Part shown: one piece after another, positions 2,891 to 34,251 of the stretch | Position numbering within the stretch: the stretch's first letter is position 1 | How the letters are laid out: every line of letters starts with the position of its first letter | IMG/VR virus record: IMGVR_UViG_2721755658_000005 | Coordinates: 1 to 46,563 of that record | Length of the DNA stretch: 46,563 bases | From: a virus | Lineage: Duplodnaviria > Heunggongvirae > Uroviricota > Caudoviricetes | Reading direction: 5' to 3' (one strand) | Translations under genes and position numbers: made by a program | Notes under the pieces: generated by a model | The model's database searches: none | Told to the model about the DNA's origin: nothing | The model's input: the letters and a program-made list of their open reading frames with translations, nothing else

Positions 2891-3232
2891 ATGAAAACTT
2901 TGCCTGCAACAACTCAGCGGGCGGTGAAGCCCTGCCTGTCACCCGTGGCTGTCTGGCAAATGCTACTGACACGCCTGCTGGAACAGCACTATGGTCTCAC
3001 CCTCAACGACACACCGTTCAGTGAGGAACGTGTTATACAGGAACATATCGATGCCGGGATCTCGCTGGCTGATGCCGTGAATTTTCTGGTGGAAAAATAC
3101 GAACTGGTGCGTATCGACAGGAAGGGATTTAACTGGCAGGAACAATCGCCTTATCTTCAGGCTGTCGATATTCTGCGAGCGCGGCAGGCAACTGGCTTGT
3201 TGCAGCAAAGCCGTAGCAACGTAGTACGATGA
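2891..3232 (+). CDS. ykfI: CbtA-family toxin (YkfI-like)
   Basis: The ATG at 2891 ([43 protein letters not shown]...) gives 113 aa. Confidence 0.75.
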
Positions 3233-3619
3233 ACATTGCGTACAACCTTCCCGATTTACATTTCTGAACTTCCTCCCTTGTTTACCTATTGCGTAATGCG
3301 CCTGCTGCTACCCGGCTGGCGCGTTATCTTTTTACGGACAAACCATCATGCAACCAGAAGGTGAAGTATTAACCGATCATAATGAGCTAATTTGTTCAAG
3401 CTTTATTGAACACATTGCCAACACATTGAATTTAGGAGTGGTGTAGACATGGACAACTAAACCTGCAGCCACGGAGGTATAGCGAGTGAAGCCCTATCCG
3501 ACCTTTTTGGTCAGTAGATAAGATTGATCTTCGTTGATAGAATTTACTTACATCAGCAGTTACATGAAAATAATTTTTGGTGGGAAAAAGATAAGACACT
3601 ACGTAACTATTTGATTTCT

Positions 3620-29958: not shown

Positions 29959-30458
29959 GATTCGATGATTTTCAGAAACGGGTTAGTGGCTTTCTTCTGC
30001 CCCGCCAGGCCAATCAGACGCTGGCGGCTGCTGGGGTCGAGTCCGAGCATTGCCCCCGTGCTGCTCATCTCGGACTCCTGTTCTTTCTTGGCGGTCAGCT
30101 CCGGATTTTTGACCATACCGCCCATTGCACCGGTGATGGTGTTGCCCTGTCTGGCAATATTTTTCACGGCACGTCGCCAGAACTCATAGGCCACGCACCA
30201 CCGCTCAAGTACCGCTAGGTCAGTCACGCACAGCAGGCCCTGACCGCAGAGTTCTTTGGTTGTCAGTTGCCACATGATCGTGGCGAGAGGGAGATCCTCT
30301 TCAGCGAACCACTCCGGTGGCTCAACACCTTTGATGGGCGTAAAAACAGGTTCATCTTTGTTCAGGGCTCGCTTGCCGGGGTTTCCGGACAGCGCCTTGC
30401 GCGCCGTTGGCTTGGGGCGACGCCCGGAACGCCCCGCCGTTCCAGCCATATGCGGCAC
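29955..30458 (-). CDS. terminase small subunit (P27 family)
   Basis: 167 aa. The motif [22 protein letters not shown] is typical of the P27 family. Confidence 0.85.
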
Positions 30459-30574
30459 TCCTGGTTAAATTTCATTTTTCGCGGGTATAAAAAAACGATG
30501 GGGCGGGCAGTCCGGAAGACGTCAGGCCGCAGGGATTTGACCCGCCCCTCCCCTCAGGCAGTTGAGAATCATTA

Positions 30575-30925
30575 TCACTTCAACCGTTCACGGGCCGTCT
30601 TCGCCTTATGACACGGCCAGCACAGACTCTGCAGATTACAGTCGGCATCAGTGCCGCCATGCGCTTTAGGGATGATGTGGTCAACAGTTTTCGCCTCACG
30701 CACCACACCAGCACGCAGACATAGCTGACACAGGCCTTTGTCACGCTTCAGGACACGCACGCGGATAACATCCCACTTCGAACCATAACCGCGCTGATGA
30801 CGAGATTGTCCTGGCTTGTATTGCTTCCAGCCTTCGCTTTTATGGCTTTCACAATAGCCTGACGGGTCAGTAGTGGTATTGCGGCAACCGCGAACGCGGC
30901 AGGCTTTTGGTGTTCGTGGCGGCAT
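30575..30925 (-). CDS. HNH endonuclease (packaging-associated)
   Basis: CQLC...DHIIPKAHGG...NLQSLCWPCHKAKT is the HNH motif. Confidence 0.9.
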   Translation of the reverse strand: MPPRTPKACRVRGCRNTTTDPSGYCESHKSEGWKQYKPGQSRHQRGYGSKWDVIRVRVLKRDKGLCQLCLRAGVVREAKTVDHIIPKAHGGTDADCNLQSLCWPCHKAKTARERLK

Positions 30926-30977
30926 ATCTACTCCAATGAAAAAGCCACCGGTTGATAACCGATGGCTTTGATTGTTC

Positions 30978-31172
30978 TTACCTGTTTTGAAGAATCTCCC
31001 GCTTTCTTACAATACATTCCGTCGTTTCTCTATAGCTGCACACGTGCTCCCGTGAACATTGGTATGTGTGCAATTCGCCGATGGCATCACCGATACCAGT
31101 CAGCACATCTTTTTCATGCAGAATGGTCACCTGCAGACGGTTGGTTGGGCAGATAATGTTTGAATAGTTCAT
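30978..31172 (-). CDS. hypothetical 64-aa Cys-rich protein
   Basis: The ATG at 31172 is preceded by AAGGAGA. The longer 123-aa track ORF needs a TTG start and has atypical composition. Confidence 0.45.
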   Translation of the reverse strand: MNYSNIICPTNRLQVTILHEKDVLTGIGDAIGELHTYQCSREHVCSYRETTECIVRKREILQNR

Positions 31173-31206
31173 TTTGGTGTCTCCTTTGCTTTCGAGACAC
31201 CAAAAT
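31173..31206 (-). promoter_or_regulatory. 12-bp perfect hairpin overlapping the SD of the 64-aa ORF
   Basis: TTTTGGTGTCTC-N10-GAGACACCAAAA. The 3' arm on the mRNA contains part of AAGGAGA and ends at the ATG. Confidence 0.5.
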
Positions 31207-31346
31207 CCCATCACGACACGTTTACCGCCACAAACATTATTGCAGGCACCCATTGAATACCTGCGGGACTGATAAACACAGCCTCCTCCATACGTAGTGA
31301 AACCATTTTCATATCTCCAGTAATGAATTCTTTGAAGAGTCGCAAT

Positions 31347-31369
31347 CAATACGACTCACTAATGGGGAG
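31347..31369 (+). promoter_or_regulatory. T7-class phage RNA polymerase promoter-like sequence
   Basis: cAATACGACTCACTAATGGGGAG compared with the consensus TAATACGACTCACTATAGGGAGA. The 14 nt AATACGACTCACTA are exact. Confidence 0.6.
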
Positions 31370-31373
31370 GCAT

Positions 31374-31389
31374 GTCCAACGCGTTGGAC
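31374..31389. promoter_or_regulatory. perfect 16-bp palindrome GTCCAACGCGTTGGAC (operator-like)
   Basis: The sequence is self-complementary and lies between the two phage-type promoters. Confidence 0.5.
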
Positions 31390-31403
31390 GAGTTGCCTAC
31401 TTG

Positions 31404-31424
31404 ATTTAGGTGACACTTTAGAAG
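31404..31424 (+). promoter_or_regulatory. SP6-class phage RNA polymerase promoter-like sequence
   Basis: ATTTAGGTGACACTTTAGAAG compared with the consensus ATTTAGGTGACACTATAGAAG gives 20/21 matches. Confidence 0.6.
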
Positions 31425-31472
31425 GACAGAATGCCTTCCTCACTCAAATAACATCAATTAAGGAGGTTCAAC

Positions 31473-31595
31473 ATGCTTCGTTCCAAAAATCAGTTGACTG
31501 TAATTATTACTACGTCACCTTATGCCGAAGACCTTTTCCGCTTCACTTTGAGCCTGATTCACTTCTACCTGACCGGCTCGCCTCTATCCTTCTGA
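31473..31595 (+). CDS. 40-codon ORF behind TAAGGAGG-N6-ATG
   Basis: It encodes MLRSKNQLTVIITTSPYAEDLFRFTLSLIHFYLTGSPLSF. The ORF is antisense to the 3' end of the Rz1-like gene. Confidence 0.3.
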   Translation: MLRSKNQLTVIITTSPYAEDLFRFTLSLIHFYLTGSPLSF

Positions 31596-31818
31596 TCCCC
31601 GCTTTATCCAGATTGCACTGCCCTAGCGCCGACAACAGACTGACATTCAAATCTAGGCTACCCGCATAAGTCAGCGGTTCAGAAATGGCTGGTTGCGGGG
31701 TTTCAGCGGTCAGACTCGCCGGTAACGGTATAGCCGGAACTGGCACGTAAACTGTCCGCGTACTTCCGCAACCGGTCAGCAGCGGCGGCAGGCACAGGAC
31801 GTGAAGCACAATCATCAT
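31543..31818 (-). CDS. o-spanin (Rz1-like lipoprotein), overlapped arrangement
   Basis: MMIVLHVLCLPPLLTGCGS carries a lipobox. The protein is Pro-rich. The gene starts inside the Rz-like gene in another frame and extends beyond it. Confidence 0.7.
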   Translation of the reverse strand: MMIVLHVLCLPPLLTGCGSTRTVYVPVPAIPLPASLTAETPQPAISEPLTYAGSLDLNVSLLSALGQCNLDKAGIRRIEASRSGRSESGSK

Positions 31819-32095
31819 CCGCAACAGCCACTTTGATATCTTCCTGGGTTCTCTGTGACTCCAGTGCGATCTGCTGTTTTGCATGCTGGTTAACCTCTAT
31901 AACTGTATTGACGATTTGCAGTGATTGCAGGACGTTACGGGTAATGGCTGTTGCAGATTCAACATTTTGTACAGCCTCATCAGCACGTTTCTTTTCGTGC
32001 TGATATTTGCTGTAGTAGTGGTTGGCAGACCAGATGAAAGAACCGATGACAGTAAAGAAGAATGCAGCGATAACCAGCTTATAGCTCAACTTCAT
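31703..32095 (-). CDS. i-spanin (Rz-like)
   Basis: 130 aa with an N-terminal TM segment and a coiled-coil region, downstream of the endolysin. Confidence 0.8.
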   Translation of the reverse strand: MKLSYKLVIAAFFFTVIGSFIWSANHYYSKYQHEKKRADEAVQNVESATAITRNVLQSLQIVNTVIEVNQHAKQQIALESQRTQEDIKVAVADDDCASRPVPAAAADRLRKYADSLRASSGYTVTGESDR

Positions 32096-32555
32096 TTACC
32101 ACCCCACCAGCCTCTTTAAACCGGGAAATCAGGTCACCGATTTTATGTTCATACTGACCGTAACCTGCACCAGGTAACGACGCCCAGATATTGCTGCAAC
32201 GATCGATAGCCTGACGGATATCACCGCGATCAATCATCGGTAAAGCGCCACGCTCTTTAATCTGCTGCAATGCCACTGCGTCCTGGCTTTTGGGGGAGAA
32301 GTCTTTCAAACCAAGCTGTTTACGGTAAGCATCCCACCAGCGTGAAAGAAGCTGATAACGTCCGGCGGCTGTTGATTTGAGTTTGGGGTTTAACGTGACA
32401 AGTTTGCGAGGGTGATCAGAGTAATCAGTAAACAGTTCGCCGCCAACAATAACATCATAACCGTGATTACGTGTCGGTTGTCGCCCGTTATCCGTTCCTT
32501 CTGACCATGCCACCATATCGAGGAAAGCTTTACGCTGGGAATTTAGTACCTGCAT
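32079..32555 (-). CDS. endolysin, lambda R-type lytic transglycosylase
   Basis: QRKAFLDMVAWSEGTDNGRQPTRNHGYDVIVGGELFTDYSDHPRKLVTLNPKL is nearly identical in pattern to lambda R. Confidence 0.9.
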   Translation of the reverse strand: MQVLNSQRKAFLDMVAWSEGTDNGRQPTRNHGYDVIVGGELFTDYSDHPRKLVTLNPKLKSTAAGRYQLLSRWWDAYRKQLGLKDFSPKSQDAVALQQIKERGALPMIDRGDIRQAIDRCSNIWASLPGAGYGQYEHKIGDLISRFKEAGGVVNEVEL

Positions 32556-32558
32556 AAA

Positions 32559-32885
32559 TTACTCCTTAGAGCCACCAAACTTATTACCGATTACTCTCAT
32601 TGCAGCCCCACGAATAGCATCAACACCGATCAGCCCCACCCCACCACCAATGGCAACAGATAGTGATTTAGGCCATCCGACATACTCAAGAGCGGATGCA
32701 AAAGTCAGCGTCAGAGCGCCACAGAGTAGAATTTCGAGTGTTTTTCGCTTCCAGCCGCCACCACCGCCAAAATAGGCAATACGTAAACCAGCCATAACAA
32801 TCGACATAATCACTGCGCCCAGCGGTGTGTCTCCACGCCACCAGCTCTGGACCAACTCCAGCCAGGTATTTGGGTTATGAGGCAT
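32559..32885 (-). CDS. holin
   Basis: 108 aa with multiple TM segments and a charged C-terminus, immediately upstream of the endolysin. Confidence 0.8.
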   Translation of the reverse strand: MPHNPNTWLELVQSWWRGDTPLGAVIMSIVMAGLRIAYFGGGGGWKRKTLEILLCGALTLTFASALEYVGWPKSLSVAIGGGVGLIGVDAIRGAAMRVIGNKFGGSKE

Positions 32886-33231: not shown

Positions 33232-34251
33232 TTGGATAAGTTTGATGAGATTCATGTAGACATTGAATCTGAGCAGCAAGCCTTCGATTTGCTTGAAAGC
33301 TATCTTGATGGTTATGGTTTACCTGACAGTTTAAGTTTCAACGGATGGCCAAACCTTACCATCAGATTAACCGGTGAAAAATTCAACAGATCGCTAACAC
33401 CTTCAGTTATGAAGGGATTTGTTGAAATGCAAGCTCAAATCAACAAATCATATGCCCTTGCCAAGTACGGTGTCCCTGACGTCCGCAAACTGACCAAAGA
33501 AGAACTTGATGCCCTAGAAATAGAAGTTACGGTAGAACAGGGTTCTTCAATAGTAGAAATCAACATTGATGGCTTTTTAACCAAACTCACACAGGAACTT
33601 GTTGGTAAAATGAACGCAACTGAGATCATGTTTACTGTTCTCGGCGCAGCAGTCATCTGGGGCGGAGTAACAGTATTTAAACGGTTCTTGGACAACCGTA
33701 AAGATATTCGCCTTGCAGAAATTGCTAAGGATGGAGAGAAAGAACATCTCCGGACTATGCAGATCATGAGCGAGCAAGAAACTAAACGCCTGCGGGTTAT
33801 TTCAGAAATGATTGCGGAAAAACCACTTCTCGATAACATGGACCGTATGTCGTATGACGCTAAAACCCAAATGGTCAAATCCTTTGTGCGTTCAGATAAC
33901 GCTCAAATTGATGGCGTTACTATTGATTCTGAAATGGCGAAAGAGTTGGTTACGAATGCTCGTAGACGTTCATCAGAAATGAGGATTGATGGTATTTACC
34001 GAATTGAAGAAGTCAATAATACTGACCCAGAGAGTTTCAAAGTTAAGGTCCGACGCGTAGATACCGACCAACGTCTAACCTGCGTAGTTCAGGATGTTTT
34101 CCTTGATGAATCCGGAAACAAAGAAGCATTGCAGCGAGCTGAGTGGGAAAGAAAGCCTGTACATTTGAGCATTAACGCAAAACACGTCGATGGTGACATT
34201 AAGTCAGCAGTAATTCTCTATGTTCGAGATGTGGAACAAAAGCCCGAGTAA
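33232..34251 (+). CDS. 339-aa single-TM protein of unknown function (moron between Q and the late leader)
   Basis: The start is a TTG preceded by GAGGA 7 nt upstream. The central hydrophobic helix is IMFTVLGAAVIWGGVTVF. The gene is lower in GC than its neighbours and convergent with Q. Confidence 0.65.
   Translation: MDKFDEIHVDIESEQQAFDLLESYLDGYGLPDSLSFNGWPNLTIRLTGEKFNRSLTPSVMKGFVEMQAQINKSYALAKYGVPDVRKLTKEELDALEIEVTVEQGSSIVEINIDGFLTKLTQELVGKMNATEIMFTVLGAAVIWGGVTVFKRFLDNRKDIRLAEIAKDGEKEHLRTMQIMSEQETKRLRVISEMIAEKPLLDNMDRMSYDAKTQMVKSFVRSDNAQIDGVTIDSEMAKELVTNARRRSSEMRIDGIYRIEEVNNTDPESFKVKVRRVDTDQRLTCVVQDVFLDESGNKEALQRAEWERKPVHLSINAKHVDGDIKSAVILYVRDVEQKPE

Follow-up and report, generated by a model that had tools for sequence, protein, structure and literature searches.

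Why would a prophage that encodes no phage-type RNA polymerase (RNAP) carry, in tandem and directly before a gene of only 40 codons, the promoters of two groups of lytic phages? The question is raised by a short cassette in a Caudoviricetes sequence, IMG/VR record IMGVR_UViG_2721755658_000005, whose whole stretch of 46,563 nucleotides (nt) was analyzed and is called the window here. Judged by their sequence, the cassette motifs are real phage-RNAP promoters located in a natural prophage. Their comparison among related prophages points, with moderate confidence on our part, to a promoter trap, in which a small membrane-active peptide would be expressed when an invading phage brings its own polymerase. 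The cassette consists of the following elements.

31300 to 31595, + strand: whole cassette, an accessory insertion of ~270 nt between the Rz1 3' end and HNH/terS/terL, antisense to the late operon
31347 to 31369, + strand: T7-group (Berlinvirus/T7-type) RNAP promoter, -17 to +6 CAATACGACTCACTAATGGGGAG, predicted +1 G at 31364
31373 to 31390, no strand: inverted repeat TGTCCAACGCGTTGGACG, with a perfect 16-mer GTCCAACGCGTTGGAC at 31374 to 31389, of the SP6-like-phage repeat type
31404 to 31426, + strand: SP6-group (Zindervirus-type) RNAP promoter, -17 to +6 ATTTAGGTGACACTTTAGAAGGA, predicted +1 G at 31421
31421 to 31438, + strand: stem-loop GAAGG-N8-CCTTC at the 5' end of the predicted SP6-type transcript
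31459 to 31466, + strand: Shine-Dalgarno sequence TAAGGAGG, 6 nt 5' of the ATG at 31473
31473 to 31595, + strand: 40-codon open reading frame (ORF) MLRSKNQLTVIITTSPYAEDLFRFTLSLIHFYLTGSPLSF, the presumed payload, predicted to encode a small hydrophobic helical peptide

Phage promoters in a prophage without a phage polymerase

An earlier note on this DNA had proposed a T7-class promoter on the + strand, an SP6-class promoter, a strong ribosome-binding site (RBS) with a 40-codon ORF, and a window devoid of phage-type RNAP. All of this stood, with every element on the + strand and at, or no more than one base from, the place first reported. The core of the T7-group site, AATACGACTCACTA, occupies positions 31348 to 31361 and the SP6-group motif, ATTTAGGTGACACTTTAGAAG, positions 31404 to 31424. 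No single-subunit RNAP is encoded in the window, where the largest ORF has 610 amino acids (aa) and tblastn with five phage RNAPs gave a best E value of 0.3. Each promoter consensus has one match in the 46.5 kb at three mismatches or fewer, and none of 100 dinucleotide-preserving shuffles matched, so that a chance origin of the promoter motifs is excluded; the inverted repeat also has a single match in the window and was matched in 3 of 100 shuffles. Since the T7-group site is a single copy, and not one of the several expected in a promoter's own genome, and no cognate RNAP gene accompanies it, it is an orphan promoter in a foreign genome.

The motifs were scored with position weight matrices (PWMs) built from real sites of T7, FE44, SP6, K1E, S16c, KP34, Przondovirus and K11, with ranges obtained by leave-one-out; the S16c and KP34 promoters were inferred from multicopy same-strand motifs, not from experiments. 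The ranges for each group's own sites, in bits, were 22.0 to 38.7 for T7, 24.5 to 34.9 for SP6, 20.6 to 37.0 for K1E, 19 to 38 for S16c, 25 to 39 for K11 and 25 to 37 for Przondovirus. Cassette motifs scored 22 to 37 bits, which places them within the span of the respective phage, versus 9 to 16 bits for the best background sites (the non-cassette sequence in 945 kb of prophage DNA, both strands). The T7-group site of the window reached 31.9 bits with the FE44 PWM, which was made from 12 annotated promoters (median of the real sites, 31.0), and the T7 PWM gave it 26.2 bits; the runner-up within the window had 9.9 bits. Its departures from the T7 consensus (-17 C, -2 A and -1 T), which the earlier note had listed as deviations outside the specificity region, are the normal form in the genus Berlinvirus: the 12 promoters of FE44 read (T/C)AATACGACTCACTA(T/A)TGGGAG, for example TAATACGACTCACTAATGGGAGA. 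The promoters of T7 itself include variants with -17 C, -11 A and -2 A. Initiation would take place in GGGGAGG from +1 at 31364, the FE44 counterparts being TGGGAGA or TGGGAAG. Across alleles, the promoter in this first slot is CAATACGACTCACTAATGG or CAATACAACTCACTAATGG, the latter matching an annotated FE44 promoter at 21 of 21 positions, and the FE44 promoter CAATACAACTCACTAATGGGACA is identical to the commonest E. coli cassette allele over 21 nt. The T7-type site is also less variable than its flanks (0.13 versus 0.25 to 0.5 variable sites per position).

The SP6-group site scored 32.3 bits with the SP6 PWM and, together with its flanks, is identical at 31 of 32 positions to a promoter region of the Salmonella Zindervirus GRNsp51. 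The window carries the SP6-type AGGTGACAC; most E. coli alleles carry ATTTACTGGACACTATAGAAGG instead, which agrees exactly with the consensus of K1E (12 sites, all on the same strand) and scored 36.7 bits with the K1E PWM (maximum, 37.0). The specificity positions -12 to -8 read GGTGA in the window, as in SP6, and CTGGA in the other alleles, as in K1E. Apart from this cassette, the IMG/VR sequences with the SP6 consensus were all lytic SP6-like contigs. Two further motifs, ATTTAATGGACACTATAGAGGG in the class D alleles of E. coli (loci L007 and L006) and AAGTTACACAATAGAA, a fourth motif in Klebsiella (L011, 2385 to 2402), matched no lytic phage group, and the IMG/VR searches returned only cassettes or random matches for them. 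Possibly they correspond to RNAP specificities for which no phage has so far been sequenced.

T7- and SP6-promoter-like sequences no more than 80 nt apart recall a dual-promoter polylinker of the pGEM/pSP type, and CCAACGCGTTGG is presumably present in the pGEM polylinker as well. Vector or assembly contamination, one of the options in the earlier note, is nonetheless refuted by the distribution of the cassette, to the point that we give it virtually no weight. A search of 5426 complete E. coli genomes recovered a 321-nt segment containing it from 625 of them, with alleles 79 to 100% identical and always in the same position, nearly always on the chromosome and once per genome. Shigella phage SfIV has it too, as do several E. 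coli phages obtained by induction, and among plasmid records it is seen only as three phage-like or decayed copies. Besides, the two promoters are co-oriented, neither is an exact vector sequence, and the flanks are continuous prophage sequence. Among species-representative genomes, a scan by protein pattern gave 34 candidates, none of which was confirmed, and a scan by DNA pattern gave no matches.

The cassette position is fixed, from the 3' end of Rz1 (or an Rz1 relic) to the first packaging gene. Phage SfV has the same S-R-Rz-Rz1-HNH order with an Rz1-HNH gap of only 26 nt and no cassette, and its alignment with the window loses homology at ~31573, which identifies the cassette as an insertion of ~270 nt. 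The Rz1 of the window is 86% identical to that of SfV up to ...AGIR, after which the tails differ; the last ~8 codons of the small ORF extend into the ancestral Rz1 tail, and the last 17 codons of Rz1 overlap the small ORF on the opposite strand. HK97 has other genes in this slot and lacks the cassette. In the K-12 prophage DLP12, different genes (ybcV) lie upstream of borD and no cassette is annotated there, the annotation having been viewed without a detailed scan. The resident genes around the insertion are listed below.

31543 to 31884, - strand: Rz1/LysC o-spanin gene of the resident prophage (Pfam LysC, E = 3.8e-16, and RefSeq annotation)
31703 to 32095, - strand: Rz
32079 to 32555, - strand: lysozyme
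32559 to 32885, - strand: holin
30575 to 30925, - strand: HNH, followed by terS and terL

Between the HNH start and the cassette (30926 to 31299), the window and locus L001, which is 100% identical to it, hold ~325 extra nt where relatives have ~50 to 95 nt. On the - strand, this stretch contains an ORF annotated in RefSeq at 30978 to 31172 (phrog_31491, of unknown function) and, at 31264 to 31242, a hairpin resembling a terminator. The reverse complement of the leader at 31436 to 31458, ATTGATGTTATTTGAGTGAGGAA, weakly resembles a KP34-type motif on the - strand directed toward the packaging genes. It scored 12.9 bits in the window and 15.8 bits in class B alleles versus 18.8 to 24.2 bits for real sites, and the resemblance is probably due to chance.

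Inverted repeats, promoter modules and host genus

The palindrome between the two promoters had been viewed as an operator of the prophage. However, it occurs once in the window and in seven or eight copies in the genomes of SP6-like phages, and it is thus not a prophage operator. The sequence TGTCCAACGTGTTGGACA has seven copies in the Klebsiella SP6-like phage S16c and TGTC(T/C)AACGTGTTGGACA has eight in SP6 (L108), and a variant, TGTCTCACATGTGAGACA, has eight in K1E (L012; positions 631, 6804, 6986, 8004, 9572, 10749, 15900 and 32585). In these three phages the copies are mostly intergenic and several lie 2 to 14 nt upstream of a promoter; the repeat is absent from T7, FE44 and KP34. SP6-like phages have a group-specific 18-bp inverted repeat in seven or eight copies at syntenic positions, often with extra complementary bases and a T-rich tail. 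It could serve in termination, in RNA processing or in the binding of a protein, and we found no functional description of it in the literature. In the cassette, the repeat probably arrived together with the promoter. The window combines an SP6-type repeat with an SP6-type promoter, O157-type alleles a K1E-type repeat with a K1E-type promoter, and the commonest allele is a hybrid. As the repeat type mostly follows the promoter type, the modules of repeat plus promoter seem to have been captured from lytic genomes. A P2 Ogr-type site (TGT-N12-ACA) or class II activator site serving a - strand late promoter was also considered for the palindrome and rejected, there being no usable -10 element at the required spacing and the repeat being that of lytic phages.

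The same data bear on whether the region could instead be a cis-acting element of the - strand late operon, involved in RNA processing, termination or packaging, with an incidental likeness to promoters. Its location inside the late transcription unit, from Rz1 to HNH, terS and terL, would agree with such a role, as would the conservation of an inverted repeat whose alleles show apparently compensatory differences. Those differences, CCAAC/GTTGG versus CTCAC/GTGAG, are however the versions found in SP6/S16c and in K1E, which makes them two lytic-phage repeats rather than compensatory changes. SfV and HK97 also do without the cassette, an Rfam scan of 30400 to 32200 (E of 1 or less) gave zero matches, and a likeness this close to eight separate classes of natural promoters is too good to be incidental, so we consider this explanation very improbable.

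Klebsiella prophages have their own versions of the cassette, found in the temperate phages Kp4864-1, Kp4856-1 and ST13-OXA48phi12.5 and in several IMG/VR contigs (whose hosts were inferred by similarity), with the same layout at the 3' end of Rz1. Their motifs, besides the fourth one mentioned above, are these.

TATTAAGACTCACTATAGGAAGA: Przondovirus-type, 35.0 bits
AATTAGGGCCCACTATAGAGACC: K11-type, 28.8 bits against 13 annotated K11 promoters
AATAGTGGCGAGTATAGAAC: S16c-type, 20 of 20 positions shared with a 14-copy S16c promoter, the S16c-type repeat also being present
AATTTAATGTTACAGGAGTAGGAA: KP34-type, 24 of 24 positions shared with the site directly after the KP34 RNAP gene

They are followed by AAAGGAG(G) and a 38-aa ORF, and up to four promoters are stacked in one orientation before one tiny gene. 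To our knowledge, promoters of Studiervirinae, Molineuxvirinae and Slopekvirinae never occur together in one lytic genome. The E. coli cassettes scored high only with the T7/Berlinvirus-, SP6- and K1E-type PWMs, and the Klebsiella cassettes only with those of Klebsiella phages, with no E. coli-phage types among the latter, nor the reverse. The sensor or trap suggested in the earlier note thereby gains strong comparative support, since alleles switch between exact promoter classes (SP6 versus K1E; T7/Berlinvirus versus K11/Przondovirus) that match the genus of the host.

The small gene and how the cassette might act

Among 41 unique alleles, the small ORF is preserved in 40, with conserved start and stop, and the RBS is kept in all the intact ones as (T)AAGGAGG or AAAGGAG. 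Constraint is seen in the C-terminal half (LFRFTLSLIHFYLTGSPLSF), where the main allele classes differ by three synonymous and no nonsynonymous changes and variable sites fall at codon positions 1, 2 and 3 in the proportion 0/1/4. Substitutions that are synonymous in the small ORF do change the overlapping Rz1 frame, and nucleotide diversity rises from 0.11 to 0.44 directly past the stop of the ORF, although Rz1 coding goes on, indicating that the + strand frame is the constrained one. The peptides have 38 to 40 aa and a GRAVY (grand average of hydropathy) of 0.4 to 1.3 across alleles, and AlphaFold predicted one long helix with a pLDDT (predicted local distance difference test) of ~90 in the conserved half. 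Homologues are confined to E. coli, Shigella and Klebsiella prophages, with none in lytic phages among 50,697 phage genomes searched, and the ORF is seldom annotated by gene callers. In the Klebsiella phage ST13-OXA48phi12.5, an unrelated hydrophobic peptide of 38 aa occupies the same slot with the same stop position. As for the leader, the 5' hairpin reported before is present at 31421 to 31438, but its stability is ordinary (z = -1.2 in the window and -0.2 in the common allele), and folding of the longer T7-type leader was not significant either (z = -2.4 and -1.7). Kp4856-1 has an analogous hairpin at +1 with a different sequence, GAAGAGGA-ATCG-TCCTCTTC.

Copies that lost the RBS or the ATG also have degraded promoters and repeats, as seen in a duplicate in L040, in L008 and in L222. 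The first belongs to some O157-type loci that carry, in tandem, a decayed duplicate of the cassette with a 5' fragment of HNH (L040, 10430 to 10570), in which the RBS has become TACGGAGC, the ATG has changed to ACG and the inverted repeat is broken. In L008 (IncX4 plasmid p194195_1, 3001 to 3314) and L222, the reading frame is shifted or its ATG gone, the RBS has degenerated and the promoter motifs are weaker. A different kind of change is found in L018 (allele a21), where the T7-type promoter and the left repeat arm were swapped for unrelated sequence and the K1E-type promoter and ORF are intact.

Decayed copies would also be expected if the cassette were a neutral scar, that is, pieces of lytic-phage DNA that recombined into the prophage and hitchhiked there with a small ORF that is fortuitous. 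Capture by recombination is indeed indicated by identity that reaches into lytic-phage flanks: 31 of 32 positions are shared with GRNsp51, the KP34-type site is preceded by AATTT, and repeat plus promoter are arranged as in K1E, SP6 and S16c. What neutrality leaves unexplained is that promoters of several unrelated subfamilies have gathered within ~120 nt, in one orientation and right before a consensus RBS and an ORF, and that E. coli and Klebsiella lineages would each have had to acquire theirs separately, with types appropriate to the host. Consensus-level scores, a T7-type site that varies less than its surroundings, a C-terminal half that changes only synonymously, and promoter decay coinciding with ORF loss also speak against the absence of selection, and we think that a scar is an improbable account of the cassette.

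Another competing account accepts that the promoters fire and places the payload elsewhere, in antisense RNA to Rz1/Rz/R/S, in read-through into iss/bor or the + strand genes past the holin, or in the promoters themselves as a polymerase sink. No terminator was found 3' of the small ORF, phage RNAPs are highly processive, iss lies downstream on the same strand in four loci (L003, L004, L006 and L007), a variable slot for + strand genes exists beyond the lysis genes, and constraint on the ORF is weak in its N-terminal half. Yet the downstream genes vary among loci with the same cassette (phrog_6191 or a metallophosphoesterase, and iss is absent from the window and SfIV), the RBS, ATG and stop are kept in all intact alleles, and the C-terminal half is constrained at the protein level. 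A sink is difficult to reconcile with numbers, as one chromosomal site could not titrate an RNAP that serves 12 to 17 promoters per phage genome copy. We therefore regard a payload other than the peptide as unlikely. The earlier suggestions of an antisense shutoff of lysis and of a link to the 339-aa gene at 33232 have no support; loci with the same cassette have different genes in that slot.

The genes in question were as follows. In most E. coli alleles, the small ORF is followed at a distance of ~180 nt by the co-oriented gene iss/bor (for example at 3477 to 3770 in L003), which encodes a serum-resistance lipoprotein and would also be transcribed if a phage RNAP read through. A relic Rz1 fragment separates the two, and a second, functional lysis cassette is situated beyond. 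The + strand slot between the antiterminator Q and the holin (33232 to 34251 in the window) holds a different gene in each relative (L001, L002, L005, L006 and L007): phrog_6191, of unknown function, in the window, a metallophosphoesterase in L001, and in others either a nucleoid-associated protein or an MBL (metallo-beta-lactamase)-fold hydrolase accompanied by hypothetical proteins. The slot looks typical of variable accessory regions and may contain defense genes; it gave no PADLOC match.

Returning to the promoter trap, the cassette would be silent in an uninfected lysogen, with no evident host-type promoter and no phage-type polymerase encoded by the prophage. A T7-like or SP6-like phage entering the cell would produce its polymerase within the first minutes, this enzyme would fire the cassette and the cell would be flooded with the small hydrophobic helical peptide. 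The peptide would then harm the cell or interfere with the infection itself. Its point of attack would most likely be the membrane, with depolarization, premature lysis or a block of genome entry as possible effects, and the outcome would be abortive infection or exclusion, which might protect the lysogen population. Promoter specificity and host matching suggest that activation would be specific to infection. The promoter modules would have been captured from lytic phages, some with the adjacent inverted repeat, and retained by selection, so that each host genus would carry the promoter set of its own predators.

Several observations weigh against this reading. The N-terminal half of the peptide is hypervariable, with a proportion of nonsynonymous differences (pN) of 0.30 versus 0.15 for synonymous ones (pS), which fits diversifying selection and also a lack of constraint. 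The hydrophobicity of the E. coli peptides is no more than moderate (1.1 to 1.35 in the best stretch of 15 aa), and the 40-aa ORF matched no defense, toxin or phage family of Pfam, PHROGs or PADLOC. With regard to the promoters, the SP6-type site of the window has TTTA at -4 to -1, with a T at -3 that is absent from 9 SP6 and 12 K1E sites (most other cassette alleles have TATA), the CTCGCTA variant of the first slot scored 17.2 bits with the T7 PWM, below the weakest promoter of T7, and the database phages with SP6-type promoters are Salmonella phages, while the allele of the window resides in E. coli and Shigella prophages. The repeat of the common allele has, together with its T-rich tail, a score like that of an intrinsic terminator and, being located between the first promoter and the ORF, could reduce read-through from the T7-type promoter; it might also insulate the ORF from the host RNA polymerase or attenuate the first promoter. 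Silence in the absence of infection agrees with a scan that predicted no sigma-70-type promoter on either strand at 30900 to 31900 or in L003 at 2900 to 3500, a crude scan and weak negative evidence, since the iss promoter, which has to be close by in L003, escaped it as well. Finally, transcription by the invader, toxicity and phage resistance are all deduced from sequence data.

A more general form of the idea, which we consider evenly balanced, is that temperate enterobacterial phages keep an evolvable library of promoters, modules of 20 to 50 bp from T7-, SP6-, K11- and KP34-like phages, before a killer-peptide gene that the RNAP of the invader would trigger. This would be a protein-free DNA sensor with a heritable, sequence-based record of predators, conceptually similar to CRISPR spacers except that an enzyme of the invader would do the reading. 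If the trap is real, the cassette may confer resistance to Autographiviridae in ~11% of the sequenced E. coli genomes and in many Klebsiella prophages, and these phages rank among those most often chosen for treating infections with E. coli K1 and K. pneumoniae. The allele of the prophage would then predict which phage is blocked. Phages could escape by changing the specificity of polymerase and promoter, which may help to explain the diversification of T7/SP6-like promoters, and the cassette would also suggest that the multicopy inverted repeat has a function in SP6-like phages.

Comparison with known systems

We found no description of this cassette in the literature, searches with literal sequence strings included, with a coverage that was incomplete and makes an earlier publication possible. 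The anti-phage systems known to us sense the invader via proteins or RNAs that bind phage components or detect damage. Here, if the trap is real, the sensor would be a set of DNA promoters that answers to what a viral enzyme does. Such a system would be silent unless triggered, would have no antitoxin and could be retargeted by a 23-bp swap.

Dependence of a defense gene on a factor of the infecting phage has been described for lactococcal AbiD1, where a phage protein activates translation of a pre-existing mRNA (PMC2661086). The cassette would be similar in that respect and would differ in that the sensor is DNA, promoters read by the viral polymerase with no host protein as sensor.

Type I toxins and lysis peptides such as Hok, TisB and Ldr are hydrophobic peptides of short ORFs with a structured 5' leader. 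The cassette product resembles them in its size of 38 to 40 aa (less than 60 aa), hydrophobicity, probable single helix and structured leader, whereas its silence would come from promoter specificity. A type I toxin-antitoxin pair was itself considered and rejected, as there is no antisense partner or host promoter (by the crude sigma-70 scan), no Rfam match and no similarity to a toxin family.

Among engineered devices, there are T7-promoter reporters and kill switches, and a Lactococcus suicide cassette attributed to Djordjevic and colleagues (1997) reportedly has a phage-inducible promoter driving a lethal gene. These share with the cassette a promoter that stays silent until the transcription machinery of the invader acts and a harmful product (a putative one in the cassette). 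They are man-made, while the cassette is natural, multiplexed for several polymerases and evolving by swaps of promoter modules.

Satellites offer a natural case of trans-activation, with the late promoters of P4 activated by Ogr of P2 and operons of phage-inducible chromosomal islands (PICI) and Staphylococcus aureus pathogenicity islands (SaPI) by late regulators of the helper. There too, promoters of a resident element answer the transcription apparatus of another phage. However, satellites exploit the helper to spread, whereas the cassette faces away from the structural genes of the prophage and serves only a tiny peptide gene, which points to antagonism and not to parasitism.

Also close to the cassette are the class II and III promoters and late leaders of Autographiviridae themselves, with 23-bp promoters scoring in the natural range, a G start, a 5' stem-loop, a strong Shine-Dalgarno sequence and, in SP6-like phages, the same inverted repeat just upstream of some promoters. 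Unlike in those phages, these parts are found in a temperate siphovirus-type prophage without such a polymerase, mix promoter classes of different subfamilies and precede a gene that has no homologue in any lytic phage. The parts are ordinary promoters of Autographiviridae; their arrangement, orphan and of multiple specificity in a temperate phage without the polymerase, is out of the ordinary.

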